Shown: positions 1,716 through 29,004 of the stretch, piece by piece
How positions within the stretch are numbered: position 1 is the first letter of the stretch
How the letters are laid out: each line of letters starts with the position of its first letter
NCBI GenBank assembly: GCA_964431135.1
Contig: CAYSIN010000002.1
Coordinates: forward strand, 1,811-65,810
Direction: 5' to 3'
Origin: an uncultured Bacteroidales bacterium
GTDB taxonomy: Bacteria > Bacteroidota > Bacteroidia > Bacteroidales > GWA2-32-17
Length of the DNA: 64,000 nt
Notes under the pieces: generated by a model
Seen by the model: the letters and a program-made list of their open reading frames with translations, nothing else
The model's database searches: none
Told to the model about the DNA's origin: nothing
Position numbers and translations under genes: made by a program

Positions 1716-1731
1716 TACAATAAATATGCAC

Positions 1732-1739
1732 TAAATTTG
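1732..1739 (+). promoter_or_regulatory. Bacteroidota-type -7 box (TAAATTTG)
   Basis: Matches TAnnTTTG, about 20 nt upstream of the mltG start. Confidence 0.4.
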
Positions 1740-1758
1740 CAACGCTAAAATTACAACG

Positions 1759-2817: not shown

Positions 2818-2826
2818 TAATAAAAT

Positions 2827-4245: not shown

Positions 4246-4286
4246 ATAATAGTACTTTTGCACCCGCATTGCCAAAAAAAGATTTT

Positions 4287-4373
4287 GGAGAGATGGCAGA
4301 GTGGTCGAATGCGGCGGTCTTGAAAACCGTTGTGCCCGTGAGGGTACCGGGGGTTCGAATCCCTCTCTCTCCG
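4287..4373 (+). tRNA. tRNA-Ser (anticodon UGA), long variable arm, no encoded CCA
   Basis: Acceptor GGAGAGA/TCTCTCC, anticodon loop cTTGAaa, long extra arm, T-arm GGGGG-TTCGAAT-CCCTC. Folded by hand. Confidence 0.9.
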
Positions 4374-4738
4374 CAAAATTCAACAAAGCGAAGCGTTTTT
4401 TTATTTTAAGCGAATAGCAGACTTGTCTGGCAATGAGCGTAAAAATAAAAAAAGAAAACGAAGTGAGTTGGTTGAATTTTAACGTCTCCCCCAACGGGTT
4501 CAACGAAGTTAATCCCTCTCTCTCCGCAAAATTCAACAAAGCGAAGCGTTTTTTTATTTTAAGCGAATAGCAGACTTGTCTGGCAATGAGCGTAAAAATA
4601 AAAAAAGAAAACGAAGTGAGTTGGTTGAATTTTAACGTCTCCCCCAACGGGTTCAACGAAGTTAATCCCTCTCTCTCCGCAAAATTCAACAAAGCGAAGC
4701 GTTTTTTTTATTTTAAGCGAATAGCAGACTTGTCTGGC
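4361..4738. repeat. 153-bp tandem repeat (2 full units plus about 0.5), first unit starting inside the tRNA-Ser 3' end
   Basis: CCCTCTCTCTCCGCAAAATTCAACAAAGCGAAGCG recurs at 4361, 4514 and 4667. Units are near-identical, and the third diverges after CTTGTCTGGC (4738). Confidence 0.9.
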
Positions 4739-5073
4739 GTTCTTTGCGGTTAATCTTTTTTTACCGCACATGTCTCGGCTATAACGGATGTTTGGAATCA
4801 GGATTTTATAAGTTTTATAAGTAACGACGCTGGATAGAGCGATTTTTTTAATATACCCCATTTTTGTTAATTGGTTGAATATAAGCAAAATAAAGAAAAT
4901 AATTGTCTGCACTAATATTGTTAATAACTTTGTTATTAAATAATTGAATAATTGATTATTATATATAATTAATGTATTATATTTGCATTCACATAATTAA
5001 TTAGATTAAAATATGTACATTGATAAAGAAACATATTATGACAAAAAAGGAAGACCCCATAAGAGAGTTCTTT

Positions 5074-5206
5074 TAATACCGACTTGCTAACAAGTTCATT
5101 AAAACCATTCGCTTCGCTTTTGTTTTAAAACTGTTAGTCTGTCGGCATCTCGTCATTGCTGACGAGACAAAATTCATTTCATTCTTTTGTGAGCGGTTTG
5201 GTATAA
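5074..5206. repeat. Composite intergenic repeat module (R1 + palindrome + R2) upstream of the hdr-flx operon
   Basis: TAATACCGACTTGCTAACAAGTTCATTAAAAC (5074-5105), imperfect palindrome CCGAC-TTG-CTAAC...GTTAG-TCT-GTCGG (5078-5146), 8-bp hairpin TCTCGTCA/TGACGAGA, then CAAAATTCATTTCATTCTTTTGTGAGCGGTTTGGTATAA (5168-5206). It has a partner copy at 11901-11977. Confidence 0.8.
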
Positions 5207-5267
5207 TACATGTTATAAAACATTTTTTTCTGTCATATTTGAATGAATAATTATTTCAAACTCGTTA

Positions 5268-5275
5268 TAAATTTG
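5268..5275 (+). promoter_or_regulatory. Bacteroidota-type -7 box (TAAATTTG) for the hdr-flx operon
   Basis: TAnnTTTG match 20 nt upstream of the hdrC-like ATG. Confidence 0.4.
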
Positions 5276-5294
5276 CCGTAAAAATTTTAAACTT

Positions 5295-5861
5295 ATGGCT
5301 GAGGTTCATTTTTATTCAACGGGTTCATTAGCAAACAGCATAAATGAACATACAGGCATTTCGGTAGCCAGATGTTACCAGTGTGGTAAGTGCTCTGCAG
5401 GCTGTCCTGTGGTGGAATTTATGGATTATCCACCCAGTTTGGTTTTACGCAATCTTCAAACCGAATTGCCGGAAAACGATGATGCCATTCTTCGTTCCAA
5501 ATCAATTTGGTATTGCTTAACGTGTGAAATGTGTATTGCACGTTGTCCTATGGAAGTGGACATCCCTGTGATGATGGATTTTCTTAGAACTGAATCGCTT
5601 CGATTAAAGAAAACCCATAAAGAAGCAAAAAATATTATCCGTTTTCATAAAGCCTTTTTAAATACCATAAAACGCAATGGCAGATTGCACGAAATGGGAT
5701 TGGTACTGGATTATAAGTCACGTTCATTAAACTTAATTCAGGATTTGAATTTGTCGCCGGGTATGTTTAGCAGAGGTAAATTAAAAATCCTGCCCGAAAA
5801 AATTAAAAACCTGAAAAACGTAAAACATATTTTTCACGAGACATTAAATAAAACGAAATAA
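5295..5861 (+). CDS. hdrC: Heterodisulfide reductase subunit C-like 4Fe-4S protein
   Basis: 188 aa. Two cluster motifs, CYQCGKCSAGCP and CLTCEMCIARCP. Sits first in an hdrC-B-A gene order. Confidence 0.75.
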   Translation: MAEVHFYSTGSLANSINEHTGISVARCYQCGKCSAGCPVVEFMDYPPSLVLRNLQTELPENDDAILRSKSIWYCLTCEMCIARCPMEVDIPVMMDFLRTESLRLKKTHKEAKNIIRFHKAFLNTIKRNGRLHEMGLVLDYKSRSLNLIQDLNLSPGMFSRGKLKILPEKIKNLKNVKHIFHETLNKTK

Positions 5862-5883
5862 TAAATCAACAAAATATAAACTC

Positions 5884-6789
5884 ATGAAACTTGGATTTTA
5901 TCCCGGATGTTCACTGGAAGGCTCATCAAGAGAATATAACGAATCGGTGATGGCTATTGCCGAAAAATTCGGTATAGAACTGGTTCAAATTCCAGATTGG
6001 AACTGCTGTGGTGCAACCGCTGCGCATAATTTGAATAAGGAATTATCGTTGTCGTTGCCTGCTCGCATTCTGGCTCTTGCCGAAGAAGCAGGAATGAAAG
6101 AAATTGTTGTTCCTTGTGCAGCCTGTTATAGCCGACTGAGTACCACTCACCATGAATTGACCATAGACGAAGAATTGCGAAATAAAGTCAACGGTATAGT
6201 CGGGAAAAATTACAACGGCACTCTCCGTATTTTAAATGTCATTCAATTCATTCAGGAATACATATTGGATAAACTGGATGAAAAAATTGTGAACGAGTTT
6301 CAAAGCAAGGTAGCCTGTTATTATGGTTGCTTATTGGTTAGGCCCCATAAGATTTTGAATTTTGACCGAACCGAAGACCCTCAAACCATGGATATGGTGA
6401 TGAAAAAATTAGGGGCTGAGCCTATTGATTGGGCATACAAAACCGAATGCTGCGGCGCAGGATTTTCCGTTTCGTTTACCGATGCCGTTTCTACCTTATC
6501 GGGAAAAATTGTGGAAGATGCTGTTCACAGAGGTGCCGAAGCGATTATTGTTGCATGTCCCATGTGTCAGTCCAACCTCGATATGAGACGTCCCGGCATT
6601 GATAAGTATATGGGAACAAAGTCGGGCATTCCTGTTTTGTATATTACTCAGGCTATAGGTTTATCTTTGGGTATGAATATGAAACAACTGGGATTGCAAC
6701 GTCACTTTGTACCCGTTAAACTGGAAAAATTCAAGTTAACTAAAAAACAGACAAAAGTTGAAGAACCACAAAAAATGGAGGAAAAATAA
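5884..6789 (+). CDS. hdrB: Heterodisulfide reductase subunit B-like protein (two CCG domains)
   Basis: 301 aa. CCG motifs DWNCCGA and ECCGAGF, plus PCAACY and CPMCQ cysteines. Confidence 0.8.
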   Translation: MKLGFYPGCSLEGSSREYNESVMAIAEKFGIELVQIPDWNCCGATAAHNLNKELSLSLPARILALAEEAGMKEIVVPCAACYSRLSTTHHELTIDEELRNKVNGIVGKNYNGTLRILNVIQFIQEYILDKLDEKIVNEFQSKVACYYGCLLVRPHKILNFDRTEDPQTMDMVMKKLGAEPIDWAYKTECCGAGFSVSFTDAVSTLSGKIVEDAVHRGAEAIIVACPMCQSNLDMRRPGIDKYMGTKSGIPVLYITQAIGLSLGMNMKQLGLQRHFVPVKLEKFKLTKKQTKVEEPQKMEEK

Positions 6790-8792
6790 TGGCACGCATA
6801 GGAGTTTTTATATGTCATTGTGGCGAAAATATTGGTGCAACGGTCGATTGTGCCAAAGTAGCCGAAGTGGCTGCCACCATTCCCGGTGTAGTTAAAAGTG
6901 TTGATTATAAATATATGTGTTCTGACCCGGGTCAGACCTTAATCAAAGACGCTATAAAGGAAAATAAACTTACCGGTGTTGTAGTGGCAGCATGTTCACC
7001 TCGTATGCACGAACCTACCTTTCGCAGGGCTTGTGCCGAAGCAGGATTAAACCCTTTTCTGTGCGAAATGGCTAATCTTAGAGAGCATTGTTCATGGGTT
7101 CATGAAAAAAGCAACGAAACAACTAACAAGGCTATAGACATTGTTCGTACACTGGTCGAAAAAGTCAAGTTAAACGAACCTCTTTATCCTATAAAGGTTC
7201 CTGTAACCAAAACAGCGCTCGTTGTTGGAGGTGGTGTGGCTGGCATTCAGGCAGCACTCGATATTGCCAATGCCGGGCATAAAGTTATTATGGTTGAAAA
7301 AAATCCTTCCATTGGCGGACACATGTCACAATTGTCCGAAACATTTCCTACGCTCGACTGTTCTCAATGTATATTAACACCGCGAATGGTTGAAGTAGCA
7401 CAACATCCTAATATTACGTTGTATTCCTATGCCGAAGTAGAAAGTCTGGATGGATTTATTGGAAATTTTAAAGTTAAAATACGCAAGAAAGCCAAAAGCA
7501 TTGACGAAAAATTATGTACCGGTTGCGGAATGTGTATAACCAAATGCCCTGTCAAGAAAATACCCAATGAATTTGATGAAAATTTAAGTTTCAGAAAAGC
7601 CATTTACGTTCCTTTTCCACAAGCCGTGCCCAACAAGCCTGTTATTGATAAAGCAAATTGTACCTATTACCTTAAAGGTAAATGCAAAATATGTGAAAAA
7701 TTCTGTCCTACTGGTGCTATTCGCTTTGACCAACAGGATGAAATTATTGAAGTAGAAGCAGGTGCTCTTGTATTAGCCACAGGATTTGATATTAAGAGAA
7801 CCGATTTCTTCCCAGAGTATGGCTATGGCAAGTATAAAGATGTAATAGATGGATTGCAGTTTGAACGTATTGCATCAGCCTCCGGACCTACCTTGGGCGA
7901 AATACGCAGACCGTCTGATGGACAAGTGCCTAAAAAAGTTGTTTTTGTGGCATGTGCTGGTTCCCGTGACCCTGCCAAAGGTATTGAATATTGCTCCAAA
8001 ATATGTTGCATGTACACTGCCAAACATACTATCCTGTATAAACACAAGGTTCATGATGGTACCGCTTATGTATTTTATATGGATATTCGTGCCGCTGGTA
8101 AAAATTACGATGAATTTACACGCCGTGCTATTGAAGAAGATGGTGCTAAATATATACGAGGCAGAGTATCCAAAATATATGAACGTGATGGCAAATTAAT
8201 CGTAGTAGGTGCCGATACCTTGATGAATGCCCGCCCTGTAGAAATAGAAGCCGATATGGTAGTGCTTGCTACCGCTGGTGTTTCCAGCCCCGGTTCTGAA
8301 GAGTTGGCTCAGAAACTTCATGTTTCTTACGACCAGTATAAGTTTTTTGCCGAAGCACATCCTAAACTAAGACCGGTAGAAACCAATACCGCAGGCATAT
8401 TTTTAGCAGGTGCCTGTCAAAGCATAAAAGATATACCCGAATCTGTATCACAGGCATCGGGTGCGGCTGCCAAAGTGTGTGGATTATTCTCACAAAATGA
8501 ACTCACCCGCGACCCGCTGATTGCCGTTGTTAACAGAACGGCACCGCCCTTATATTCTACGTGCGTGGGCTGTTTCTTATGTCAAAGTGTATGTCCCTAT
8601 CAGGCAATTGAAAAAGAAGAAATCAAAGCAAGAGATGGTAGCGTTATTAAAACCGTTGCACGAATTAATCCTGGGTTGTGTCAGGGTTGCGGTACTTGTG
8701 TGGCACTATGCCGTACCAAATCTATCGATATTCTGGGATATACCCATAAACAAATTTATGCAGAAGTAGATGCCGTTTTAAATACATTATAA
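6789..8792 (+). CDS. hdrA: Heterodisulfide reductase subunit A-like FAD/Fe-S flavoprotein
   Basis: 667 aa. FAD fold VVGGGVAGIQAA and several CxxCxxCxxxCP ferredoxin motifs. Start overlaps the hdrB stop (ATAATG). Confidence 0.8.
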   Translation: MARIGVFICHCGENIGATVDCAKVAEVAATIPGVVKSVDYKYMCSDPGQTLIKDAIKENKLTGVVVAACSPRMHEPTFRRACAEAGLNPFLCEMANLREHCSWVHEKSNETTNKAIDIVRTLVEKVKLNEPLYPIKVPVTKTALVVGGGVAGIQAALDIANAGHKVIMVEKNPSIGGHMSQLSETFPTLDCSQCILTPRMVEVAQHPNITLYSYAEVESLDGFIGNFKVKIRKKAKSIDEKLCTGCGMCITKCPVKKIPNEFDENLSFRKAIYVPFPQAVPNKPVIDKANCTYYLKGKCKICEKFCPTGAIRFDQQDEIIEVEAGALVLATGFDIKRTDFFPEYGYGKYKDVIDGLQFERIASASGPTLGEIRRPSDGQVPKKVVFVACAGSRDPAKGIEYCSKICCMYTAKHTILYKHKVHDGTAYVFYMDIRAAGKNYDEFTRRAIEEDGAKYIRGRVSKIYERDGKLIVVGADTLMNARPVEIEADMVVLATAGVSSPGSEELAQKLHVSYDQYKFFAEAHPKLRPVETNTAGIFLAGACQSIKDIPESVSQASGAAAKVCGLFSQNELTRDPLIAVVNRTAPPLYSTCVGCFLCQSVCPYQAIEKEEIKARDGSVIKTVARINPGLCQGCGTCVALCRTKSIDILGYTHKQIYAEVDAVLNTL

Positions 8793-8793
8793 C

Positions 8794-9240
8794 ATGGATG
8801 AATTTGAACCAAAAATTGTAGCCTTTGTATGTAACTGGTGTACGTATGCAGGCGCCGACCTTACCGGTACAAGTAGAATAAAATATGCTACCAATGTAAG
8901 AATTATACGTTTCCCGTGTACGGGCAGAATAGATTTTATGCTTATACTGAAAGCCTTTGCACAAGGTGCCGATGGTGTTATTATTTCTGGATGCCATCCT
9001 AACGATTGCCATTATACGTCAGGCAATTTTCATGCTCGCAGACGCTGGATAGTGTTCAGAGGATTGCTCGATTTTTTGGGTATCGACGTTAGAAGAATTA
9101 CCTTTTCGTGGGTTTCTGCTGCCGAAGGTGCCAAGTGGGCAGACTTGGTTAATAAAACCACTGCCGAAATACGTAAACTCGGACCCTATACCAGTTACCA
9201 TAACATATCAAAACAGGAAGAGGAGGTAACTCATGGATAA
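8794..9240 (+). CDS. mvhD: MvhD/FlxD-like methyl-viologen-reducing hydrogenase delta-subunit domain protein
   Basis: 148 aa. FVCNWCTYAGADL, RFPCTGRID and ISGCHPNDCHY signature. Confidence 0.8.
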   Translation: MDEFEPKIVAFVCNWCTYAGADLTGTSRIKYATNVRIIRFPCTGRIDFMLILKAFAQGADGVIISGCHPNDCHYTSGNFHARRRWIVFRGLLDFLGIDVRRITFSWVSAAEGAKWADLVNKTTAEIRKLGPYTSYHNISKQEEEVTHG

Positions 9241-10033
9241 AATAAAACAAAAAGCAAAAGAACTGCTCGAATCAAATAAAGTTCAAGTAGTCATTGGCTA
9301 TGAAGAAGGTACTGCCGGAAAAACAAGACCGGTTTTTATTACCAATGCCAAAAATACCGATAAACTTATTTTTGATGACCGATGCTACCATAATCTTGCC
9401 GTTTATCTTACCAAAGTTGACGTTAAGAAAATGGGAAGAGTAGCCGTAGTCGCATCGTTGAATACACTGAAAAGTATCGTAAAATTATCATCCGAACATC
9501 AGGTGGCATTTGAAGATATCGATATTTTAGGTGTAGATAGAAGTGGTGAATTGCACGAATTTGCCAGTATGGACGATGTATTGAATTACATCCATCAAAA
9601 CCCAGTAGAATATAGCCCTGAAGAAAAATCATTGCTTCAGAAAATAGAATCTATGACGATGGAAGAACGATGGGAATTCTGGCAAGACCAATTTTCACGC
9701 TGTATTAAATGTTATGCTTGTCGTGCGGCATGCCCCAATTGCTATTGCGACCGCTGTATTGTTGATATCAATCAGCCACAGTGGATTCCTACCACTTCCG
9801 ACAACATAGGAAATCTTGAATGGCATATTGTCAGAGCCATGCACCTTGCTGGTCGTTGTGTCAACTGCGGCGCTTGTGCCGATGCCTGCCCTGTCAATAT
9901 TCCATTAAACCTGCTTACTCTTAAAATGACCGAAGAAATTAATAAAGACTTTGGTGCATCCGACGAATTTACTTTAACCGATTATCCTTTATCTATATAC
10001 AATTCAAACGATAAAGAAAATTTTATTAAATAA
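9233..10033 (+). CDS. 4Fe-4S dicluster protein (FlxC-like position)
   Basis: 266 aa. CIKCYACRAACPNC and CVNCGACADACP motifs. Overlaps the mvhD stop. Confidence 0.55.
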   Translation: MDKIKQKAKELLESNKVQVVIGYEEGTAGKTRPVFITNAKNTDKLIFDDRCYHNLAVYLTKVDVKKMGRVAVVASLNTLKSIVKLSSEHQVAFEDIDILGVDRSGELHEFASMDDVLNYIHQNPVEYSPEEKSLLQKIESMTMEERWEFWQDQFSRCIKCYACRAACPNCYCDRCIVDINQPQWIPTTSDNIGNLEWHIVRAMHLAGRCVNCGACADACPVNIPLNLLTLKMTEEINKDFGASDEFTLTDYPLSIYNSNDKENFIK

Positions 10034-10037
10034 TGCT

Positions 10038-11057
10038 ATGGCTATAGAAAAAAAATTAATAAAAAAAGAATCACTTCCCAGATTCATAGAAGCATTGATT
10101 AAGGCTGGGAAATTGATGTTCGCACCTGTAAGTGTTCGCGATAAAGTTATTTTTAAACCCATCACAAATTTTAACGAAATAGCGCTCGATTATATTCAAA
10201 CCGTACAGTCTTTTAAAAGCGTTGTGTTTCCTAAGATTGAAAAATTGTTTGAATATGAAGCCGACAAACAGCATGTCGCCATTAAGGATGTAGATTTAAA
10301 CACTATTCCCGATACTATTGTTTTTGGTGCTCATCCATGCGATGCGGCTTCGTTTAATGTGTTGAACGCTGTTTTTACATGGGATTACAGAGATGAGTTT
10401 TTTATTACACGAAAAAATAAAACAACTGTTATTGGACTGAGTTGTAAAAATCACGACGATTATTGCTTTTGCACTTCGGTGGATTTGAATCCCGGTTCTA
10501 CCGAAGGCAGCGATATCCTATTGACCAGAATAGAAAACAATCATTATCTTGCCGAAATAATTACAGAAAAAGGTAAAGCCGTTTATGAACTGACCAAAGA
10601 CCTGTTCGAACCAGCACCTCAGGTGGACAAAAATGCTTTTGTAACCAAGGTTCCCAAGCAATTTGAGTTGAATAATCTGAAAGGGAAATTGTCGTTTGAA
10701 GGACCTTCGTGGATGGAGCAATCTATGCGTTGTTTAGGATGTGGCACGTGTGCTTATGTATGCCCCACCTGTTCCTGCTTCGATATTCAAGATATAGGAA
10801 ACCAAACCAAAGGCAAAAGAGTTAGAACATGGGATACCTGTGCTTTGTCTCAATTTACACTGCATACTTCGGGACATAATCCGCGTAGTGCACAAAACGA
10901 ACGCTGGCGTCAGCGTATTCTTCATAAATTTTCGTATGAGCCGGAACGATTGCATGTATATGGCTGCGTAGGCTGTGGACGTTGTTCAAGGGCATGTCCT
11001 GTCAATATCAATATTTTAGAAAACCTGATTGAAATAAGTGGAGGAAATAAACAATGA
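10038..11057 (+). CDS. 4Fe-4S dicluster protein (FlxB / AsrA / HydB-like)
   Basis: 339 aa. CLGCGTCAYVCPTCSC and CVGCGRCSRACP motifs. Confidence 0.55.
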   Translation: MAIEKKLIKKESLPRFIEALIKAGKLMFAPVSVRDKVIFKPITNFNEIALDYIQTVQSFKSVVFPKIEKLFEYEADKQHVAIKDVDLNTIPDTIVFGAHPCDAASFNVLNAVFTWDYRDEFFITRKNKTTVIGLSCKNHDDYCFCTSVDLNPGSTEGSDILLTRIENNHYLAEIITEKGKAVYELTKDLFEPAPQVDKNAFVTKVPKQFELNNLKGKLSFEGPSWMEQSMRCLGCGTCAYVCPTCSCFDIQDIGNQTKGKRVRTWDTCALSQFTLHTSGHNPRSAQNERWRQRILHKFSYEPERLHVYGCVGCGRCSRACPVNINILENLIEISGGNKQ

Positions 11058-11893
11058 GTGATACCAATATTTATAAACCTTATTTGATGAAAATCGAAAA
11101 GGTTATTGAAGAAGCACCCGATGTTAGAACATTTCGGTTGAATTTCTTAAACGAAGAAGAAGGTAAAAATTTCGACTTTAAAGCAGGTCAGTTTGGCGAA
11201 TATTCGGTAATGGGTGAAGGCGAATCAACCTTTTGCATCGCTTCTTCTCCTACACGCAAAGGTTATATAGAATGCACATTTAGAAAAGCAGGAAGAGTTA
11301 CGTCTGCATTGGCAAACAAGGAAGAAGGCGAAATTATTGGCTTTAGAGGTCCTTATGGAAACCGTTTCCCCATAGAAGAATGGAAAGGCAAAAATCTGCT
11401 GTTTATTGCAGGTGGTATAGCGTTGCCTCCTATGAGATGTGTCATCTGGAACTGCCTCGATTTGAGAAATCATTATAAGGACATTACTATTTTATACGGT
11501 GCCAAAACGGTCAACGATTTGGTATATAAATACGAACTTAAGGAATGGGAAGAGCGTCCCGATGTAAATCTTATTACAACTGTCGATCCGGGAGGTGAAA
11601 CACCCGACTGGAAAGGGCAGATAGGATTTGTCCCTACTGTTCTTGAAAAAATGGCACCCAAAGCCGAAAATACTATTGCCATTGTTTGCGGACCACCCGT
11701 AATGATTAAATTTTCTTTTCCCGTATTGGAAAAAGCCGGTTTTAAAGATACGGATATTTATACCACACTCGAAAATCGTATGAAATGTGGCTTCGGCAAA
11801 TGCGGCAGATGCAATGTGGGCGATGTTTATGTTTGTAAAGATGGACCCGTTTTTACGTATGCCCAATTGAAAAAATTACCCCCAGAATATTAA
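11054..11893 (+). CDS. FAD/NAD(P)-binding oxidoreductase with C-terminal 2Fe-2S (FlxA / HydG / AsrB / PyrK-like)
   Basis: 279 aa. FNR-like fold (GQFGEY, IAGGIALPP, CGPPVM) and terminal CGFGKCGRCNVG cluster motif. ATGA overlap with the previous gene. Confidence 0.65.
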   Translation: MSDTNIYKPYLMKIEKVIEEAPDVRTFRLNFLNEEEGKNFDFKAGQFGEYSVMGEGESTFCIASSPTRKGYIECTFRKAGRVTSALANKEEGEIIGFRGPYGNRFPIEEWKGKNLLFIAGGIALPPMRCVIWNCLDLRNHYKDITILYGAKTVNDLVYKYELKEWEERPDVNLITTVDPGGETPDWKGQIGFVPTVLEKMAPKAENTIAIVCGPPVMIKFSFPVLEKAGFKDTDIYTTLENRMKCGFGKCGRCNVGDVYVCKDGPVFTYAQLKKLPPEY

Positions 11894-11900
11894 ACTATTA

Positions 11901-11977
11901 TTAATCGACTTACTAACAAGTTCATTAAAACACGCAAACAAAATTCATTTCATTTTTTTGTGAGCGGTTTGGTATAA
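11901..11977. repeat. Second copy of R1+R2 repeat module, immediately downstream of the hdr-flx operon
   Basis: TTAATCGACTTACTAACAAGTTCATTAAAAC followed by CAAAATTCATTTCATTTTTTTGTGAGCGGTTTGGTATAA. Same order and orientation as 5074-5206 but lacking the roughly 62-nt palindrome block. Confidence 0.8.
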
Positions 11978-11983
11978 AATGAC

Positions 11984-12006
11984 TTTTTAAGGAACGACTC
12001 AATAAA
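11984..12006 (+). repeat. TTTTTAAGGAACGACTCAATAAA motif (copy 1 of a promoter-upstream repeat)
   Basis: Near-identical to 14657-14680 and 25736-25759. Lies 45 nt upstream of the TAnnTTTG box at 12053. Confidence 0.7.
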
Positions 12007-12050
12007 CTTTTTTTATATCATTGCTGCTGAGTAATAACAATTATTTTTTA

Positions 12051-12190
12051 TATACCTTTGTGAGTGTAAAAATTATATACGGAATTTAAAAATGAACTAT
12101 TTAAGACACATATTCAATATGGCTCACAGGAACAGCATTTATCAAAACAAAGCGACTATGGATAATGAAGATATAAACGTAATGGTAAGT
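12051..12190 (+). promoter_or_regulatory. Promoter (-7 box TACCTTTG at 12053-12060) plus conserved ~130-nt leader, copy A
   Basis: Duplicated at 25777-25915. From the shared ATG (12092 / 25820), 75 of 85 positions are identical, counted by hand. Contains a 37-codon uORF (12092-12205, MNYLRHIFNMAHRNSIYQNKATMDNEDINVMVSLYRC). Confidence 0.6.
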
Positions 12191-12251
12191 TTATACAGAT
12201 GTTAGTGGCAAGACTAACAAATGACCACAAACTAAACAGACAAAAGTAGAA

Positions 12252-13499
12252 ATGAGTAATATTGATTTTAGTAAAATAACAACAGGAGTTTTAGCTCAAC
12301 AACAACTTGAGAAGAAGATTTCCGAATATAAAATTTTCTACAAGACACACTTGACGGGCGTAAAAAATAGAAATGAAGCATTAAATAAGATATATCCAAT
12401 TTGTGTAAAGTATCAAAAGACTGACCCTAAAACAGCTTTTTACACGGACAAAGAAAGAATATCATTAGAAGTTGAGACCGAAGAAGTTTTAAAAAAATAT
12501 TTCAGTTCGGACATACTTCAGTTGTTTAACAAAGAAATCCCAACACCCAAACCTAAAAGACAAATTGACTATGACAATTCGTTTTGGCTTACACTATTAG
12601 CAGGTTTTGCAAACACGTTTGAGACGTTAAATGAAAAATACAAACAGGAATTGCATTATAAACGGAATTTTCTGATTTTTCTAAATAACTGTTTGCTCAA
12701 TTTCGGTTTACACCCTGACATTTTAAGGCGAGAGGCTGATACATACAAACGATACAACATTGTTATTGAGCATTTTTTTAAATCAAAAAGCAAAATAACT
12801 GAACATAAAATTTTGCTGAGTCCAGAAACACTTCAACAAGAGTTTTTGACGCCTTACGGAAAGAAACTTCCAATACGTTTAAATGGCAAGCTAATTCCAT
12901 TTAAAAGTATTTATTCAATTCAGATTTCATCTACTCTTTTGCTTGATGACGAAATTGAACTTTATGCAAGAAAAAACAATTTCAATTGGACTTCAACAAA
13001 AAGAGACGAAAAGGATTTTATATCTTATTGTCTTGACGAAACAGATAACTTGCATAAAAATCCCTACTTGGTTTCGGAGAACGAAAAATTTAGAAACCAA
13101 AACATTTATTTCGTTGACGTCATAAGAATTGAAGAATTGAAAGCCATCAAGACAAAACAGTTTGACTTATCAAAACTTATTCGTTTATGTGAAGAACTAA
13201 ACAACAATTCTGCAACAAAGAATAATTTCAGTTCATCACTACTTGTTAGGACAATTATTGACCATATTCCACCGATATTTGGTTTCAAAAATTTTTCTCA
13301 ATTAGCAAATAACTACGCTGACGGGACAAAAAGTTTTAAAAAGTCAATGCTCAATCTTGACAATTCACTACGAAACATCGCAGACAACAATATTCATTCA
13401 CAAATTAGAACAAAGGAGGTTTTGCCAACCAAAACACAAGTTGACTTTACACAAGAGTTAGATTTATTGTTAAGCGAAATAGTAAGAAAACTAAAATGA
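12252..13499 (+). CDS. Hypothetical 415-aa protein; C-terminal ~125-aa helical domain with HEPN-like motifs (candidate effector of the two-gene unit)
   Basis: No TM, cNMP-binding, TIR or nuclease signature that I can recognise in the first ~290 aa. The C-terminus has LLVRTIIDHIPP (R333-x4-H338) and SLRNIADNNIHS (R374-x7-H382, resembling the DUF4145-type RxxGNxxAH). The function is inference only. Confidence 0.45.
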   Translation: MSNIDFSKITTGVLAQQQLEKKISEYKIFYKTHLTGVKNRNEALNKIYPICVKYQKTDPKTAFYTDKERISLEVETEEVLKKYFSSDILQLFNKEIPTPKPKRQIDYDNSFWLTLLAGFANTFETLNEKYKQELHYKRNFLIFLNNCLLNFGLHPDILRREADTYKRYNIVIEHFFKSKSKITEHKILLSPETLQQEFLTPYGKKLPIRLNGKLIPFKSIYSIQISSTLLLDDEIELYARKNNFNWTSTKRDEKDFISYCLDETDNLHKNPYLVSENEKFRNQNIYFVDVIRIEELKAIKTKQFDLSKLIRLCEELNNNSATKNNFSSSLLVRTIIDHIPPIFGFKNFSQLANNYADGTKSFKKSMLNLDNSLRNIADNNIHSQIRTKEVLPTKTQVDFTQELDLLLSEIVRKLK

Positions 13500-13536
13500 T
13501 AAATAACAGCAATACTAATAGAAATCGCATATAGTA

Positions 13537-14364
13537 ATGAAAAGACAACATAAAAACACTAGAAACAGAATGAAATATGAGAAAAGAATAACGGTATTTC
13601 TTGATATACTTGGTTTCAAAGAAATAATTAAAGCTACCGAAGACAATCAAGGAAATGACAACGAAGAAAAAATAAAATTTCTCCACGACACTATTTTGCA
13701 AATCAGAGAGCTTTTAGACATTGACAACGGTCATCAAGCAAAGTCAAAGCAAGTTACACAGTTTTCTGACAGCGTTGTTATATCTTTCAAGGAAAACGAA
13801 GAAAGCGAAGTATTTTTCACATTAAGCGACATTCAGACATTAGTAATCAATTTAGCTTTAAGAGGAATTATTTGTAGAGGCGGTATTTCATACGGAAAAC
13901 TCATTCATTCAGACAAAATGATTTTTGGACCAGCGTTAGTTGAAGCTTACGAAACAGAAAGTAAAGCAGCTTTGTATCCTAGAATTATATTGGACAGGAC
14001 TATTATTGACATTGGGAAAAAACATCACGCATTTCATCACGGAGAAATTGACGAAAAAAAAGCGATTTTGAAAATACTTAATAAGGATACTGACGATATG
14101 TTTTACATTGACTACTTTTCTAAAGCACAATCAGAACTTGACGACCCCGAATACGATATGCCGACATATATTGATAAATTAAAAGAAATCATTGAGGCAG
14201 GAATTAAAGCAGGTAAAAAATCACCAGATATAAAAGTGAAATACAATTGGATGAAAAACAAATTTAATACTATGGTAAAAGCATTCAAAGACTCTAATTT
14301 TATTTCATCACTTAATGACAGTGACCTGAAAGATTACTACAATGAACTTGAACTAATCAAATAA
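13537..14364 (+). CDS. Divergent class III nucleotidyl-cyclase / palm-fold protein (PycC-like layout), 275 aa
   Basis: Ordered motifs ITVFLDILGF (D23), QFSDSVVISF (D78), CRGGISYGKL and FGPALVEAYETES match the metal-Asp / metal-Asp / R-G-G-I-x-x-G / G-x-x-V-x-x-A order of class III cyclases. The canonical N..R pair is not evident. An alternative start is M12 (13570). Confidence 0.55.
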   Translation: MKRQHKNTRNRMKYEKRITVFLDILGFKEIIKATEDNQGNDNEEKIKFLHDTILQIRELLDIDNGHQAKSKQVTQFSDSVVISFKENEESEVFFTLSDIQTLVINLALRGIICRGGISYGKLIHSDKMIFGPALVEAYETESKAALYPRIILDRTIIDIGKKHHAFHHGEIDEKKAILKILNKDTDDMFYIDYFSKAQSELDDPEYDMPTYIDKLKEIIEAGIKAGKKSPDIKVKYNWMKNKFNTMVKAFKDSNFISSLNDSDLKDYYNELELIK

Positions 14365-14371
14365 AGCCCAG

Positions 14372-14505
14372 CCACTAACACATGGTATAGTGCATGCGGG
14401 TTTCAGCGGTTTGCGAGCGTTTGTGGCTCGTAAAAAAGGTCAGTGTAAACTGATAGGAAATCGCCTCGTAATCCCGCACGACACCATACCATCAACCGTT
14501 AGCAA
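14372..14505 (+). repeat. 134-nt imperfect hairpin element H-A (attC-like architecture) ending in GTTAGCAA
   Basis: Starts 8 nt after the stop codon. Stems are CTAAC(14375-79)/GTTAG(14498-502), ATGGTAT(14382-88)/ATACCAT(14486-92) and TGCGGG(14395-400)/CCCGCA(14473-78). The spacers are asymmetric, 2 nt against 5 nt. Confidence 0.6.
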
Positions 14506-14512
14506 CCACTTT

Positions 14513-14537
14513 CTCGTCCTCGTTTGCAACGAGGATG
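14513..14537. repeat. 25-bp hairpin repeat CTCGTCCTCGTTTGCAACGAGGATG
   Basis: 8-bp stem TCCTCGTT/AACGAGGA. An exact reverse-complement copy lies at 25699-25723. Confidence 0.85.
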
Positions 14538-14580
14538 TTAACCTATCCCATCTCATTCGCTAACAAAGACGAAGGAGGGA

Positions 14581-14618
14581 CTGCATGATATTCATTTAAT
14601 CATGCAGGGTTCTTTTTT
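14581..14618 (+). terminator. Rho-independent-type terminator
   Basis: 9-bp stem CTGCATGAT/ATCATGCAG with a 9-nt loop, followed by GGTTCTTTTTT. Confidence 0.5.
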
Positions 14619-14656
14619 GCGAAAAAAAAGAAAAGTACAAGAAAGATTAAAATGAG

Positions 14657-14680
14657 TTTTTAAGGGACGACTAAATAAAA
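14657..14680 (+). repeat. TTTTTAAGGGACGACTAAATAAA motif (copy 2)
   Basis: Same motif as 11984-12006 and 25736-25759. Lies about 105 nt upstream of the nuo -7 box. Confidence 0.7.
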
Positions 14681-14785
14681 CAAAAATAAACCCTGTTTAT
14701 TCATTTTGTCATAATAGAGTTAAAAAAAATTCAGAAAAATATTTTTTACTGAGAAAAATCAATATCTCAAAATAAAAATATAATA

Positions 14786-14793
14786 TACCTTTG
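14786..14793 (+). promoter_or_regulatory. Bacteroidota-type -7 box (TACCTTTG) for the nuo operon
   Basis: TAnnTTTG match 46 nt upstream of the nuoA ATG. The same ATATACCTTTG word occurs at the two leader copies. Confidence 0.45.
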
Positions 14794-14838
14794 CAAAAAT
14801 TTTGAACAGGTAAAAAGTAATAATCTATATTTAATGCT

Positions 14839-15189
14839 ATGAGTACTCAAATTTTAATAACCTTTTTTATAACGGCTGTTTTTTTGGTAGCCGCAGGCAT
14901 TGTATTAGCCGTATGGTTAGCACCGACCTCTTTTAACAAGCAAAAACCGGAGGCGTATGAATGTGGAATACCCACCAAAGGCGTTACGTGGCTACAGTTC
15001 AATGTTGGATATTACACCTTTGCTCTTTTATTTTTAGTCTTTGACGTAGAAACCGTTTTTTTGTTTCCATGGGCAGTGGTGATGAAACAAATAGGGCTTG
15101 TGGGGCTTGTTGAAATTGTTATATTCTTTATTATTTTGGTATTGGGCTTAGCATACGCCTGGAGAAAACACGCATTAGTATGGCAATAA
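14839..15189 (+). CDS. nuoA: NADH-quinone oxidoreductase subunit A
   Basis: 116 aa, 3 TM, YECG motif. First gene of the nuo order. Confidence 0.85.
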
Positions 15190-15767
15190 AATCGATGAAA
15201 GAAACAGACTTCAAGGATACAGAAACCTTGGAGCAGATGATGTTAGAAAAACACGGTATATTTTTTACTACCGTAGATTATATTTTAAACTGGGGTCGTT
15301 CCAATTCTATATGGCCCCTGACCTTTGCCACCAGTTGTTGTGGCATAGAAATGATGGCAACGGCAGCGGCTCGCCACGATTTTGCACGATTTGGCATAGA
15401 AGTTTACAGAGCCTCGCCACGTCAGGCTGATGTGATTGTGGTAGCCGGTACCATTGTTAATAAAATGGCACCCGTTCTTAAACGATTGTACGACCAGATG
15501 GCAGACCCCAAATATGTTATTGCCATGGGTTCTTGTGCTATTTCGGGTGGTCCATTTTTTTACAATTCTTATCATGTTATAAAGGGTGTAGATAATTTGC
15601 TCCCCGTTGATGTATATATACCCGGCTGTCCACCGCGACCCGAAGCCTTTTTATACGGCGTAATGCAATTACAAAGAAAAATTAAAAAGGAAACCATCAA
15701 AAATAAATACGCCAAGAAAAATGTCAAGAACAATTACGACATAGAAAATCCGTTACCTGAAAAATAA
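15180..15767 (+). CDS. nuoB: NADH-quinone oxidoreductase subunit B
   Basis: 195 aa. N2-cluster cysteines [16 protein letters not shown] and IPGCPP. Confidence 0.9.
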
Positions 15768-15773
15768 ATTGCC

Positions 15774-16235
15774 ATGACCAATCAACTATTAAAAGACGTT
15801 ATCGAACATTTTGGCATCGAGGCAAGCATTAGCGAAGCCCAATATTTAACCGTAGAGGTGTCGTACGACAAACTCTATGAAATGGCTAAAAAACTTAAGG
15901 AAAATGAACAAACCAACATGGATTATCTCCTATTGATTACCGGTGTAGATTATAAAGACCATTTGGGTTGTACTTATCTGCTTACTTCTACTACAGCCAA
16001 TCATTATCTGGTACTAAAAACCAAAAATATTGATAGAGCCAATCCACACGTTGATTCGGTTACTTCCTTATGGATAACCGCAGAGTATCATGAGCGTGAA
16101 ATATACGACTTCTTTGGAATTATATTTAATAATCATCCCGATTTGCGAAGAATGTTTTTGGATGAAAACTGGAAAGGCTATCCACTACGCAAGGATTATG
16201 TAGATGAATCAAATATTATAGAAAGAAAATCATAA
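15774..16235 (+). CDS. nuoC: NADH-quinone oxidoreductase subunit C
   Basis: 153 aa. AEYHEREIYDFFGI motif. Confidence 0.85.
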   Translation: MTNQLLKDVIEHFGIEASISEAQYLTVEVSYDKLYEMAKKLKENEQTNMDYLLLITGVDYKDHLGCTYLLTSTTANHYLVLKTKNIDRANPHVDSVTSLWITAEYHEREIYDFFGIIFNNHPDLRRMFLDENWKGYPLRKDYVDESNIIERKS

Positions 16236-16240
16236 ATCAA

Positions 16241-17374
16241 ATGGCAGAAGAAAAAATATATAACGATATGGTAACCGATGCTGCAGAGCAAGAGTTTGAA
16301 ATAAACATGGGTCCACAGCATCCTTCGACGCATGGCGTTATGCGGTTTGTGGTTAAATTGAAAGGTGAAATTATTGAATCCATACAGCCTCATTGTGGTT
16401 ATATTCATCGTGGCATAGAAAAAATGTGCGAATCGATAACCTATCCACAAATTATACATTTAACCGACCGAATGGATTACCTCTCGGCACATATCAATAA
16501 CGAATCTGTATGTCTTTGTGTCGAAAAAGCCTTAAACATGGAAGTGTCTGACCGTATAAAATACATCAGAACGATTATTGCCGAACTTAATCGTATTTCT
16601 TCTCACTTGTTGTGGTGGTCGTCTATGTGTATGGATATGGGTGCCGTAACACCTTATTTTTATGCTTTTCGCGACCGTGAAAAAATTTTGGATATTTTTG
16701 AAGAAACCACAGGCGGCAGATTGCTATACAGTTATAACTGTCCCGGCGGCTTAATGAACGATATTCATCCTAATTTTCAAAAACGGGTAAAAGAATTTAT
16801 TCCTTATTTTAGAGAAAGTTTTAAAGAATATGACGAACTGATTACAGGCAATGTTATTTTTCAGAAAAGAACTATCGGCATTGGCTGTTTAACCAAAGAA
16901 CAAGCCATTGCATACGGCGTTACGGGACCTGCAGGCAGAGGTTCGGGCTATGCCTGCGATGTACGGAAAAGAGTACCTTACAGTGCTTACGATAAAGTTC
17001 AATTTAAGGAAATACTTTACAACGAAGGCGACAGTTTTGCACGATATAAAGTCAGAATGGACGAAATGCTCGAATCGTTAAACATTATTGAACAACTTAT
17101 TGACAATATCCCCGAAGGAAATTATGTCGAAAAAATGAAAGCCATTATTAAACTTCCCGAAGGTGAATATTTTCAACAGGTAGAAACAGCCCGTGGTGAA
17201 CTGGTAGTTCATATTATCAGCGATGGGAATAAAAATCCTTATCGGGTTAAGTTTCGTTCTCCCTGCCTCTCTACACTGCAAGTTATCGACCCCATCACAA
17301 GAAATTTTAAAATAGCAGATTTAATTGCCATAGGAGGTTCATTGGATTTGGTTATACCCGATATAGATAGATAA
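16241..17374 (+). CDS. nuoD: NADH-quinone oxidoreductase subunit D
   Basis: 377 aa. MGPQHPSTHGV and HRGIEK motifs. Confidence 0.9.
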   Translation: MAEEKIYNDMVTDAAEQEFEINMGPQHPSTHGVMRFVVKLKGEIIESIQPHCGYIHRGIEKMCESITYPQIIHLTDRMDYLSAHINNESVCLCVEKALNMEVSDRIKYIRTIIAELNRISSHLLWWSSMCMDMGAVTPYFYAFRDREKILDIFEETTGGRLLYSYNCPGGLMNDIHPNFQKRVKEFIPYFRESFKEYDELITGNVIFQKRTIGIGCLTKEQAIAYGVTGPAGRGSGYACDVRKRVPYSAYDKVQFKEILYNEGDSFARYKVRMDEMLESLNIIEQLIDNIPEGNYVEKMKAIIKLPEGEYFQQVETARGELVVHIISDGNKNPYRVKFRSPCLSTLQVIDPITRNFKIADLIAIGGSLDLVIPDIDR

Positions 17375-17409
17375 ATAATGATTAATTATAAATGATTAGT
17401 GTTTATTAA

Positions 17410-17775
17410 ATGAAAGAAAGTACTATAAAAGATAAAAGTTTAAAATTTGCCGTCAGAATGGTGAAGTTGTATAAATTTCTTGCCGAAGATAAGAACGAGT
17501 TTGTGATGAGCAAGCAACTTTTAAAATGTGGTACAAGCATTGGGGCAAATATCAGAGAAGGAGATTATGCAGAATCGAAATCGGATTTTATTCATAAATA
17601 CTCAATCGCACAAAAAGAATGTAATGAAACGATATATTGGCTTGAATTACTTTATTTGTCAAAATATTTAACTAAAACAGAATTTGAATCAATTAATAAA
17701 GATTGTGTAGAGTTAATGAAATTATTGACTTCCATTATCAAAACGGCAAAAAAATCATTAACCATTAATCATTAA
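17410..17775 (+). CDS. Four-helix-bundle protein (23S rRNA intervening-sequence protein / Avd-like family) inserted between nuoD and nuoH
   Basis: 121 aa. Family signature SKQLLKCGTSIGANIREG ... ESKSDFIHKYSIAQKECNETIYWLELL. Flanked by the 11-bp inverted repeat TAATGATTAAT (17376-17386) / ATTAATCATTA (17764-17774). Confidence 0.75.
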   Translation: MKESTIKDKSLKFAVRMVKLYKFLAEDKNEFVMSKQLLKCGTSIGANIREGDYAESKSDFIHKYSIAQKECNETIYWLELLYLSKYLTKTEFESINKDCVELMKLLTSIIKTAKKSLTINH

Positions 17776-17787
17776 ACATTAAAAATT

Positions 17788-18876
17788 ATGAGTGGATTTT
17801 TATACGATTTTTCAGTAGTAACACAAAGTATAGATACAGCGTTTCGTTCATGGATGCCCGATGTATGGGCTACTGTTCTTGAATATACTATCATTGGTCT
17901 CATTTATCTGATTGTGTATGCCCTTATCGGATTGTTTTTAGTGTATTTGGAAAGAAGGGTATGTGCCTTTATTCAAGTACGCTTGGGTCCAAATCGTGTT
18001 GGTCCAAAAGGATTTTTTCAGACTATTGCCGACTTTATCAAGTTACTGTTAAAAGAAAATATAAGAATAAAAAATGCAGATAAAATACTTTTCAATATTG
18101 CTCCGTTCATTGTAATTGTTGCTTCATTCCTTACTTTTGGGACTATTCCCTTTGCCAAAGGATTGCAGGGTATAGACTTAAATATAGGTGTTTTTTTTAT
18201 TATGGCCGCGTCTTCTATGGGTGTAGTAGGTATTTTACTGGGTGGATGGTCCAGCAATAGCAAATATTCGCTTATTGGTGCCATGCGTAGTGGTGCTCAA
18301 ATTGTGAGTTACGAATTGTCGGTAGGACTAACACTGGTAACAATGGTTATATTAACAGGAACCATGCAATTGTCGCAGATTATAGAATTACAAAGCGACG
18401 GATGGTTTATTTTTAAAGGACATATTCCTGCCTTAATTTCATTAATCGTAATGTTGATTGCTGGTACTGCCGAAATAAACAGAGGTCCTTTTGACTTGGC
18501 AGAAGCCGAATCGGAACTGACAGCCGGTTATCATACCGAATATTCAGGTATCAAATTCGCCTTTTTCTACCTGTCGGAATACATGAATATGTTTGTGTTG
18601 TCGGCATTGGTGGCTACTATCTTTTTTGGTGGATGGATGCCATTACATATAGGTTCATGGCAAGCGTTTAATCATATTATGGATTTTATACCGCCCATCG
18701 TTTGGTTTGTTATAAAAACATTCGCCGTTATGTATCTTATCATGTTATTCAAATGGACATTTCCACGTTTAAGAATAGACCAGTTGCTCAAACTTGAATG
18801 GCAATATTTGCTTCCAATCAATCTGTTTAACGTGTTGCTAATGGCGTTTGTAGTTTTTATGAAGTGGCATTTTTAA
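17788..18876 (+). CDS. nuoH: NADH-quinone oxidoreductase subunit H
   Basis: 362 aa, polytopic. ERRVCAFIQVRLGPNRVGP and PFDLAEAESEL motifs. Confidence 0.9.
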   Translation: MSGFLYDFSVVTQSIDTAFRSWMPDVWATVLEYTIIGLIYLIVYALIGLFLVYLERRVCAFIQVRLGPNRVGPKGFFQTIADFIKLLLKENIRIKNADKILFNIAPFIVIVASFLTFGTIPFAKGLQGIDLNIGVFFIMAASSMGVVGILLGGWSSNSKYSLIGAMRSGAQIVSYELSVGLTLVTMVILTGTMQLSQIIELQSDGWFIFKGHIPALISLIVMLIAGTAEINRGPFDLAEAESELTAGYHTEYSGIKFAFFYLSEYMNMFVLSALVATIFFGGWMPLHIGSWQAFNHIMDFIPPIVWFVIKTFAVMYLIMLFKWTFPRLRIDQLLKLEWQYLLPINLFNVLLMAFVVFMKWHF

Positions 18877-25649: not shown

Positions 25650-25698
25650 TGACTCCTTTCCATTTGATACCAAATCGCTAACAAAAGAATGAAAATGT

Positions 25699-25723: not shown

Positions 25724-25735
25724 GGTAGAATAGGT

Positions 25736-29000: not shown

Positions 29001-29004
29001 CAAA

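Follow-up and report, generated by a model that had tools for sequence, protein, structure and literature searches.

Introduction

In integrons, gene cassettes that are found alone, without a nearby integrase, are known as SALIN (Loot and colleagues, bioRxiv 10.1101/2022.09.11.507474), and the same authors showed that insertion of cassettes is possible at places other than att sites, expression following if a resident promoter is next to the landing point (bioRxiv 10.1101/2022.09.11.507474). The cargo of integron cassettes is known to be rich in defence and toxin-antitoxin genes (bioRxiv 10.1101/2024.07.02.601686). Here, we report on a locus of an uncultured Bacteroidales bacterium, lying in a stretch of 64,000 nucleotides (assembly GCA_964431135.1, contig CAYSIN010000002.1, positions 1,811 to 65,810; referred to as the window) in which two adjacent open reading frames (ORFs), ORF1 and ORF2, probably form an isolated, fused cassette of integron type made of two independent genes. 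ORF2 would be a self-contained toxin-type effector with a cyclase fold, and ORF1 a separate protein with an effector-like module associated with restriction-modification (R-M) genes.

The closest characterized relative of ORF2 comes from a prophage. The genes gp8 and gp9 of Burkholderia prophage phi52237 form the toxin-antitoxin pair PanAT(Bur. phage) (Kurata et al., 2022; PMC8832971). The toxin, PanT(Bur. phage), is toxic in Escherichia coli and is neutralized through a complex with PanA; it inhibits transcription most, then translation and then replication, and its expression leaves ATP unchanged, slightly lowers GTP and triggers a RelA-dependent rise of guanosine tetraphosphate (ppGpp) that is not the cause of the toxicity (PMC8832971). 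The protein was called cyclase-like by HHpred and described as a ‘putative nucleotide cyclase’ toxin of unknown product (PMC8832971); we found no follow-up work on it in the literature.

A two-gene block with cassette boundaries

The limits of the mobile block are given by comparison with related loci. Locus L087 shares with the window only positions 12201-14380, at 92.7% identity, and its flanks are unrelated, and for L170 and L171 the shared part is limited to 13509-14380 (92.9%) and has the same two ends, GTTAGTGGC and GCCACTAAC. L087 and L170 agree in their left boundary, where the homology breaks between G and TT. The GTTAGTGGC box occurs in only two copies in the window, in inverted orientation, and the same box precedes cassettes in L170. 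At the other end, GCCACTAAC opens at 14372 a site in which an imperfect palindrome of ~128 nt follows, ending with ...AACCGTTAG, and the fold of this site pairs CTAAC with GTTAG. The ‘134-nt hairpin’ that had been noticed after ORF2 is a real structure (14372-14503; RNA fold of 14365-14640, z = -5.8), and corresponds to the attC-like site. A reading of GTTAGTGGC and GCCACTAAC as terminal inverted repeats of a transposon or of a miniature inverted-repeat transposable element was rejected: a target-site duplication is absent, and in other loci these boxes are part of array sites.

The 37-nt gap between the two genes is informative on the origin of the pair. In the alignment with L170, it keeps the leader of the ORF2 cassette and a decayed box, and a few bases upstream is the stop codon of ORF1, a gene that has here no site to itself; since the gap keeps these remnants and the ORF1 site is missing, the pair appears to be a fusion of two single-gene cassettes. 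As a separate observation, in L088 a solo homolog of ORF1 (75% identical) is bracketed by a direct repeat of ~65 nt (4492-4560 and 6066-6130), with ThiF and DUF6527 genes upstream, and its stop codon is followed by 12 nt (GTAATGAAAAGA) that are similar to the beginning of ORF2.

A family of attC-like sites in other genomes

Elements of the same build, with a total length of 126-128 nt, separate co-oriented genes in L091, L170 and L087. They open with YTAAC and a 3-nt spacer, after which comes a stem whose bulges have fixed positions; the centre is variable and often contains GTGCTTCGAAAT, and it is followed by the mirror arm, a 5-6-nt spacer and GTTAG/C/T. A structure test and a covariance model, R1, were based on ten of these elements, none of which comes from the window. 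On the ten elements a 20-pair structure has 83% of its cells paired, versus 68% in shuffled controls (0/500 reached the real value) and 27-45% when the structure is slid, and 12 of the 20 pairs show compensatory changes.

When run with filters off on the 64-kb window, R1 found exactly two full-length sites, both on the + strand. The match at 14375-14502 (41 bits, E 1.2e-6) is the site behind ORF2; the other, at 29007-29133 (71.5 bits, E 3e-13), is placed directly after a 313-aa ORF for a PDDEXK_2 ‘nuclease family transposase’, and for this reason 28059-29133 looks like a further isolated unit of cassette type. Next to it, at 29267-29812, is a second copy of PDDEXK_2, which is truncated.

In other loci R1 sites are all on the gene strand and amount to at least 12 in L052, at least 12 in L091, 8 in L011 and 5 in L179. 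The array of Flavobacterium psychraquaticum (at least 12 sites) contains an ORF2 homolog bracketed by the sites 9865-9991 and 10809-10935; Ancylomarina salipaludis has an array of 8 sites, and further arrays occur in Chitinophagales and Solitalea loci. In the L091 array a homolog of ORF1 is bracketed by the sites 6644-6770 and 8125-8252, and L089 and L097 have arrays too. Single-cassette homologs in co-oriented arrays are thus known for both genes, ORF2 being found in this form in L052, L011, L012 and L170, and ORF1 in L091, L089 and L097.

The content of two arrays is worth recording in its own right. L091 (1-12740) has ~12 sites in 12.7 kb with all genes co-oriented, and two of its sites (1-120 and 6649-6768) are 100% identical; beside the ORF1 homolog, the cargo includes an AAA_15/21 ATPase, an nSTAND NTPase and a nucleoside deoxyribosyltransferase-like protein. 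In L179, which is L170 extended, the co-oriented array spans 4276-17974, with sites after genes for PAD_porph, VWA/NOV_C, an OLD-TOPRIM/AAA_21 ATPase and the ORF2 homolog. A four-gene Wadjet operon (JetABCD, 11147-17715) lies between the sites 10863-10989 and 17847-17974 and, because the whole operon stands between two sites, it resembles one cassette of ~7 kb. No recombinase was found within 10 kb of the L179 array.

Outside this site family, the ORF2 homolog of Vibrio jasicida (L022, gene at 1972-2877) is placed between two of seven repeats of ~120 nt (108-4504) of the form TAACAAAC...GCGTTAG, which correspond to the Vibrio chromosomal-integron type. Downstream of an ORF2 homolog with 83% identity, in L007 (4330-4640), there are about three tandem units of ~100 nt containing CCGTTATGTTTTTAC; they gave no R1 call and may be empty or degenerate sites. 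Two attempts were discarded: a first attC detector, combining a regular expression with folding, gave 205 matches on the reversed control versus 73 on the real sequences, missed known sites, and its counts were not used; and a divergent ORF of L060, considered as an integrase candidate, proved to match LacI in a search of the PDB.

ORF2 belongs to the family of the PanT toxin

The AlphaFold2 model of ORF2 has a pLDDT of 94.9 and a pTM of 0.91, and in a Foldseek search of the PDB the targets ranked 1-43 are all catalytic domains of class III adenylyl/guanylyl cyclases, with E down to 6e-5. These targets, among them Ma1120, Rv1900c, Rv1264, CyaC, sGC and sAC, cover approximately the first 155 residues, with a TM-score to the target of 0.68 for the best cyclase match. 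The class III nucleotidyl-cyclase fold that had been proposed for ORF2 is consequently borne out by the model, and the motifs on which the proposal was built (metal-Asp, metal-Asp, RGGIxxG and GxxVxxA, in this order) are all present. In an alignment of 88 sequences, the invariant residues include D23, D78, R114, G115, G131, P132, A137 and E141, and furthermore P148, R149, D184, D186, K235 and W238. D23 (F.DILGF) and D78 (FSD) are also kept in PanT, and their motif context suggests a metal-binding role. Within the segment FGPALVEAYETES, G131, P132, A137 and E141 do not vary; V135 and E139 presumably stand where the transition-state Asn/Arg pair would be expected, and with this motif register the canonical pair is missing, as the original prediction had noticed.

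Sequence profiles of known cyclases do not reach this protein: ORF2 has no match to Pfam Guanylate_cyc PF00211 even at E<=1, and none at E<=1 in PADLOC-DB, including PycC, Pycsar and CBASS. Its own family is very large. A first search gave 481 clusters (90% identity), none of them annotated, with members in Bacteroidota, Chlorobi, many Proteobacteria and other phyla; the profile search of 1.84 billion representatives gave 11,478 clusters at E<=1e-3, of which 7,285 at <=1e-10. Because ~11,500 clusters are too few to include the canonical cyclases, the profile does not extend to them, and because nearly all of the clusters are 240-290 aa long, the architecture is fixed and stand-alone. Relatives of ORF2 were found on 89 plasmids, while the Enterobacter homolog had no blastn match in complete E. 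coli genomes.

A tblastn search of phage genomes with ORF2 identified six P2-like Burkholderia prophages (E 3e-9, aa 12-156). The CHARACTERISED relative in phi52237 is gp8 (YP_293707.1), which starts 3 nt after gp9 (YP_863932.1), a SocA/Panacea antitoxin-domain protein (E 8e-18); the gp9-gp8 pair is located in the accessory region of phi52237, between the integrase and the portal gene Q. The alignment of the ORF2-family profile to gp8 by hhalign (99.5% probability, E 2e-22, 232 columns) contains all of the signature motifs and makes gp8 a full-length member of the family. ORF2 and PanT have in common YE.R..F.DILGFK, FSD, RGGI..G.L.H, FGPA.V.AY..ES and PR.IL, as well as the C-terminal domain, with an identity of only about 25-31%. 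ORF1 gave no match to SocA_Panacea of Pfam, and Panacea is absent from the recurrent neighbours of the ORF2 homologs. The family of ORF2 therefore includes one validated toxic member that needs no dedicated effector, so that, by analogy, ORF2 would need no cognate effector either. Since this homolog arrests growth alone, we infer that ORF2 is a self-contained toxic effector using a nucleoside triphosphate (NTP) substrate, and not a generator of signals for ORF1.

ORF1 and its portable C-terminal module

ORF1 has ~80 full-length homologs, and hundreds of proteins of 230-530 aa share with it only the last ~130 residues, with 50-63% identity. This C-terminal module (C-module) sits on many different N-termini, the fusion partners being diverse and mostly unannotated. 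Short C-module proteins are often encoded 0-7 nt downstream of R-M genes (Type ISP, HsdR, MTase-Mrr fusion, TdeIII), while other genes found just upstream of them encode DUF5343 proteins and an AAA_13 ATPase. ORF1 is an independent accessory protein, and its C-module is a portable domain typical of R-M-linked abortive-infection genes.

The residues conserved among ORF1 homologs are R292, D305, E315, N317, R333, (D337, H338), P340, S361, (R374), D378, H382, R386, E389, D404 and E409. The two motifs that had been pointed out in this region, Rx4H (R333/H338) and a second R...H (R374/H382), are really there: R333 and H382 never vary among the homologs, and conservation is at least 90% for H338 and R374. 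The step from these motifs to a HEPN-like C-terminus has fared less well. The module is not in Pfam, 40 C-module proteins give no HEPN family in Pfam, and the Pfam, NCBIfam and PADLOC scans of ORF1 contain no HEPN profile, whichever of the thresholds was applied; these scans were equally empty for cyclic-nucleotide (cNMP)-binding, transmembrane and TIR domains, in agreement with what had been read from the sequence. The AlphaFold model of full-length ORF1 (pLDDT 82.7), in which the C-module is all-helical, had no Foldseek match in the PDB and in the viral models of BFVD, HEPN proteins included, and a profile of the C-module had none among PDB sequences. HEPN is for ORF1 a suggestion at the level of the motif, and a nuclease role of the C-module is plausible.

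The two genes are unlinked outside one lineage

If ORF1 and ORF2 worked as a pair, it would be visible in their homologs. On the side of ORF2, 80 loci from species-representative genomes and 6 others, each with a flank of up to 10 kb, were searched by tblastn with the N-terminal part of ORF1 and with the C-module separately. ORF1 was found in 0/85 other loci, including those in which ORF2 is 83% and 67% identical. On the side of ORF1, a sample of 80 metagenomic ORF1/C-module loci contained ORF2 only in L087, which is 95%/93% identical and belongs to the same lineage, and thus in 0/79 of the others. An ORF2 with 96% identity (P0001) has no ORF1 and is located between an OLD/AAA_21 ATPase and a Wadjet system, and the homologs of ORF1 with 77% and 74% identity have no ORF2, one of them being next to a C5-methylase/HinP1I pair and the second next to genes of the CoiA, Schlafen and nSTAND3 types. 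The genes immediately beside ORF2 homologs, 147 in number, include no family with more than five occurrences (HsdS 5, integrase 4, kinases 3, ORF6N 3, SNIPE-type 3), and no small upstream ORF that could be a hidden antitoxin of the solo homologs is conserved across lineages. ORF1 and ORF2 are accessory genes that do not depend on each other, both of a kind usual in defence islands and on mobile elements; the defence-type and mobile surroundings that had been anticipated for them are found in the homolog loci, and the description of the genes as ‘orphan’ has to be abandoned.

Some solo ORF2 homologs of enterobacteria deserve a separate mention. In Enterobacter (L004-L006) and in Citrobacter (L031) they adjoin a SNIPE/T5orf172 nuclease gene. 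The Enterobacter loci have near the ORF2 homolog a GIY-YIG gene, a CI-like fragment (in two of the three loci) and an integrase remnant, as well as ~700 nt of uncalled DNA upstream, in which no ORF is shared between the genera. In L031 the gene upstream encodes a full-length integrase.

The resident surroundings of the cassette

The upstream flank of the cassette encodes, according to Pfam, HdrC/B/A-type proteins and then FlpD/Fer4/Fer4_22/NAD-binding (Flx-type) proteins, and the downstream flank NuoA and NuoB; the layout first described, with two same-strand ORFs of 415 and 275 aa between hdrCBA-flxDCBA and nuoA, agrees with the coordinates (Table 1). The greater A/T-richness of the pair, at first judged by eye, is also confirmed by a computed G + C of 0.30-0.33 versus 0.37-0.43 in the flanking operons. 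Neither gene had a meaningful match to Pfam, PADLOC or NCBIfam models, nor any to PDB sequences in single-sequence and profile searches, and an Rfam scan of 11800-14900 gave only a chance miRNA match.

Table 1. Features of the locus, in coordinates of the window
Feature	Position	Strand	Remarks
32-nt direct repeat, left copy	11975-12006	+	resident intergenic set bracketing the insertion
Promoter-like motif TACCTTTG and leader repeat	12053-12200	+	motif at 12053-12060; outside the mobile block
Cassette	12201-14502	+	cargo ORF1 and ORF2; starts at G/TTAGTGGC, ends with 128-nt attC-like palindrome
5' boundary box GTTAGTGGC	12201-12209	+	R'-like half-site; exact reverse complement of 14372-14380
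ORF1	12252-13499	+	415 aa; helical N-terminus, beta-rich middle, portable C-terminal module
C-terminal module of ORF1	13101-13496		aa 284-415
Putative fusion junction	13500-13536	+	ORF2 cassette leader and degenerate R'-like box; ORF1's own recombination site missing
ORF2	13537-14364	+	275 aa; 37-nt gap after ORF1
Domains of ORF2			class III cyclase fold, ~aa 12-155; conserved helical C-terminal domain (extra 120 aa)
attC-like site	14372-14502	+	imperfect palindrome, GCCACTAAC to ...CAACCGTTAG
Native intergenic repeats	14503-14647	+	hairpin 14510-14537 and stem-loop/T-run 14581-14618; not in L087/L170
32-nt direct repeat, right copy	14648-14679	+

The pair had been credited with its own promoter and leader. 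The promoter-like motif TACCTTTG does exist; what precedes ORF1, however, is a resident repeat outside the block that starts at 12201. The leader at 12069-12176 matches 25797-25904 (108 nt, 88%), which precedes an unrelated beta-propeller gene of the SBBP/type IX secretion system (T9SS) type, so that a leader repeat with a TACCTTTG motif is found ahead of both this gene and ORF1. Such a position, upstream of ORF1 and outside the block, fits promoter capture, and the resident promoter and leader probably drive the cassette. The leader may also contain a small ORF of 37 codons (ATG at 12092), whose TAG stop (12203-12205) is provided by the first bases of the cassette.

The stem-loop/T-run at 14581-14618, visible by eye, is likewise outside the block, and was not called by a terminator scanner because its loop is 9 nt long. 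The flanking ‘repeat modules’ are real and form a genome-wide intergenic family, not one specific to this locus. Their copies, with which short hairpins also occur, include 5167-5206, 11938-11977 and, inverted, 25667-25694, then 14510-14537 with 25700-25724, and 5086-5145; several hold half-sites resembling CTAAC/GTTAG, such as AGCGGTTTGG, a sequence that forms the first arm in the sites of L170 as well. These repeats may be decayed cassette sites or an unrelated family of the repetitive extragenic palindromic (REP) kind; R1 gave on them only a weak match (5028-5137, E 0.68). The 32-nt direct repeat (11975 and 14648) was considered as an att-type duplication and set aside, its core recurring at 25738, as is more likely for a resident repeat. 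Upstream of the hdr operon, at 4358-4738, a 153-nt unit is repeated in tandem, with three copies; between the first two full units the identity is 100%, and in the compared segments of the third it is 96-100%.

Discussion

The sequence of events that we propose is the following. Two formerly separate single-gene cassettes would have fused, with ORF1 losing its own site and the ORF2 leader being left in the gap with its decayed box. The fused cassette would then have landed between the hdr-flx and nuo operons, just downstream of the resident promoter/leader repeat, which would now transcribe it. ORF2 would act alone on an NTP substrate, and it is probably held inactive until a trigger, such as infection, occurs.

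Several observations weigh against this reading. Neither the window nor the 10 kb around any of the arrays yielded an integrase, a tyrosine recombinase or another recombinase (phmmer, two integrases versus the ORFs), R1 does not match the Vibrio repeats, so that the site family is distinct in sequence, and complete integrons are reported to be rare in Bacteroidetes, a phylum described as having almost none (PMC9024848; bioRxiv 10.1101/2024.07.02.601686). Immediately behind GCCACTAAC the homology between the window, L087 and L170 comes to an end, and the same ORF2 cargo, at ~93% identity, is followed by three different site bodies (window 14381-14502, L087 4834-4956, L170 6868-6989); the whole attC does not travel with its cargo, which classical cassette mobility does not predict. 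Sites within one array resemble each other, and the differing bodies suggest either that sites are homogenized to match the host array or that exchange takes place at their first box, GCCACTAAC. Furthermore, the ORF1-ORF2 block is present in two contexts, and has therefore moved together at least once, so that a local functional tie between the two genes is possible. Neither family has a known defence phenotype, and PADLOC has no match for them. Finally, the prophage homolog of ORF2 needs an antitoxin, yet solo members of the family have none, and for this reason ORF2 may have a weak toxicity, another kind of regulation or no toxicity whatever.

An alternative is that the pair is similar to a toxin-antitoxin system, in which the upstream ORF1 would be the antitoxin or sensor neutralizing or gating the toxin ORF2, after a partner swap specific to this lineage. 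The validated ORF2 homolog needs an antitoxin encoded immediately upstream, and ORF1 is co-oriented, 37 nt upstream, and part of one block in two contexts; the antitoxin-first order and promiscuous partner swapping are documented (PMC10440598), and a conserved C-module with variable N-termini resembles the architecture of PanA. We nevertheless consider this arrangement unlikely, since the ORF2 with 96% identity has neither ORF1 nor a conserved neighbour, ORF1 is missing from the remaining 85 loci of the ORF2 side, no neighbour family exceeds 5 of 147, and small conserved upstream ORFs are lacking. In addition, relatives of ORF1 are alone or beside R-M genes, and the junction looks like an accidental fusion of cassettes. 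The lack of linkage also bears on the original prediction, according to which ORF2 makes a cyclic or linear nucleotide on infection and thereby activates ORF1 as a HEPN-type RNase, in a manner similar to Pycsar and CBASS. The cyclase fold with conserved Asp, the conserved Rx4H and second R...H of ORF1, the operon-like layout and the R-M setting of the C-module, suited to abortive-infection nucleases, all speak for it. Such a pairing of a signal generator and its own RNase effector does not hold, as homologs of the two genes occur together in a single lineage only (0/85 and 0/79 in the other loci), a lack of linkage that had been named with the prediction as a refutation of it; moreover, there is no Pycsar or CBASS match in PADLOC, ORF1 has no nucleotide-sensing domain and no HEPN profile or fold match, and the homolog PanT is toxic without any such effector. 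We regard this model as very improbable.

A different kind of explanation is that one or both genes are decaying cargo, functionless or useful only in stabilizing the cassette by addiction. Toxin-antitoxin cassettes are known to stabilize integron arrays (bioRxiv 10.1101/2024.07.02.601686), neither family has a known phenotype in a native host, and the cassette is isolated and a product of fusion. Set against this, both ORFs are intact, all of the family-invariant residues are present in the window copies, and the block is 92-93% identical across three contexts without disruption and stands behind a promoter-like module; mere passengers therefore have, in our judgement, a small chance of being the right description. 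We return to the isolated fused cassette as the reading to be preferred. It replaces what was an attractive ‘new cyclic-nucleotide defence system’ with a fused mobile cassette of two genes acting independently. The PanT family, mechanistically unsolved, is very large and almost always without an antitoxin; the C-module of ORF1 is an undescribed portable domain tied to R-M genes; the attC-like family points to the presence in Bacteroidota, for which integrons are reported as rare, of integron-like arrays with a content of defence genes; and the separate movement of cargo and site body is relevant to the way in which cassettes arise.

A broader proposal, which we put forward as a speculation with some chance of being correct but more doubtful than the reading of the locus itself, is that Bacteroidota carry a widespread cassette-array system which uses distinct attC-like sites of 126-128 nt and an undescribed recombinase and shuffles defence modules of one or several genes, with site bodies homogenized to the host array. 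ORF2-type proteins would be in this case autonomous abortive-infection effectors that have no antitoxin and make or consume a nucleotide, and the C-module a new R-M-linked, nuclease-type effector domain. The cargo of such a system would comprise solo PanT-type toxins with a cyclase fold, proteins of the ORF1 type and ATPases of the OLD family, and its modules could be as large as a complete Wadjet operon.

Comparison with known systems

With the class III cyclases (Ma1120, 4WPA; Rv1900c, 1YBT; sGC) and with PycC of Pycsar, ORF2 shares the fold, the order of the motifs, two invariant Asp and the conserved Arg-Gly; it differs from them in the lack of a PF00211 or PADLOC PycC match, in the missing Asn/Arg pair and in the extra C-terminal domain of 120 aa. 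Pycsar has an adjacent effector with cNMP-binding and transmembrane or TIR domains, whereas ORF2 has no such partner and its homologs no conserved neighbour. PanT(Bur. phage) is closer, with homology over the full length, the same cyclase-like fold prediction and a mobile-element setting, but ORF2 has no Panacea (DUF4065) partner, the upstream ORF1 is unrelated, and most of the ~11,500-cluster family is solo. The C-module, for its part, is similar to the HEPN-type modules of R-M-linked abortive infection (DUF4145-type, for example) in being helical, ~130 aa long, R-M-coupled and provided with Rx4H and R-x7-H, while its two conserved R/H clusters on different helices depart from the canonical layout with a single motif.

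The nearest parallel for the locus as a whole is given by the cassettes of integrons. Compared with SALIN and CALIN, IntI was not found in the window or in the arrays, the site body does not travel, and the sites are distinct from the Vibrio repeats. In the window, as in integron cassettes, the terminal ...AAC/GTT... boxes pair, the length of ~128 nt falls in the 57-141-nt range of the palindromes, and the 5' end of the cassette (GTTAGTGGC) complements the first box of its own site (GCCACTAAC); in the relatives, the likeness extends to co-oriented arrays with one site per cassette. A cargo of defence or toxin genes and an expression that appears to depend on a resident promoter close by are further points in common.

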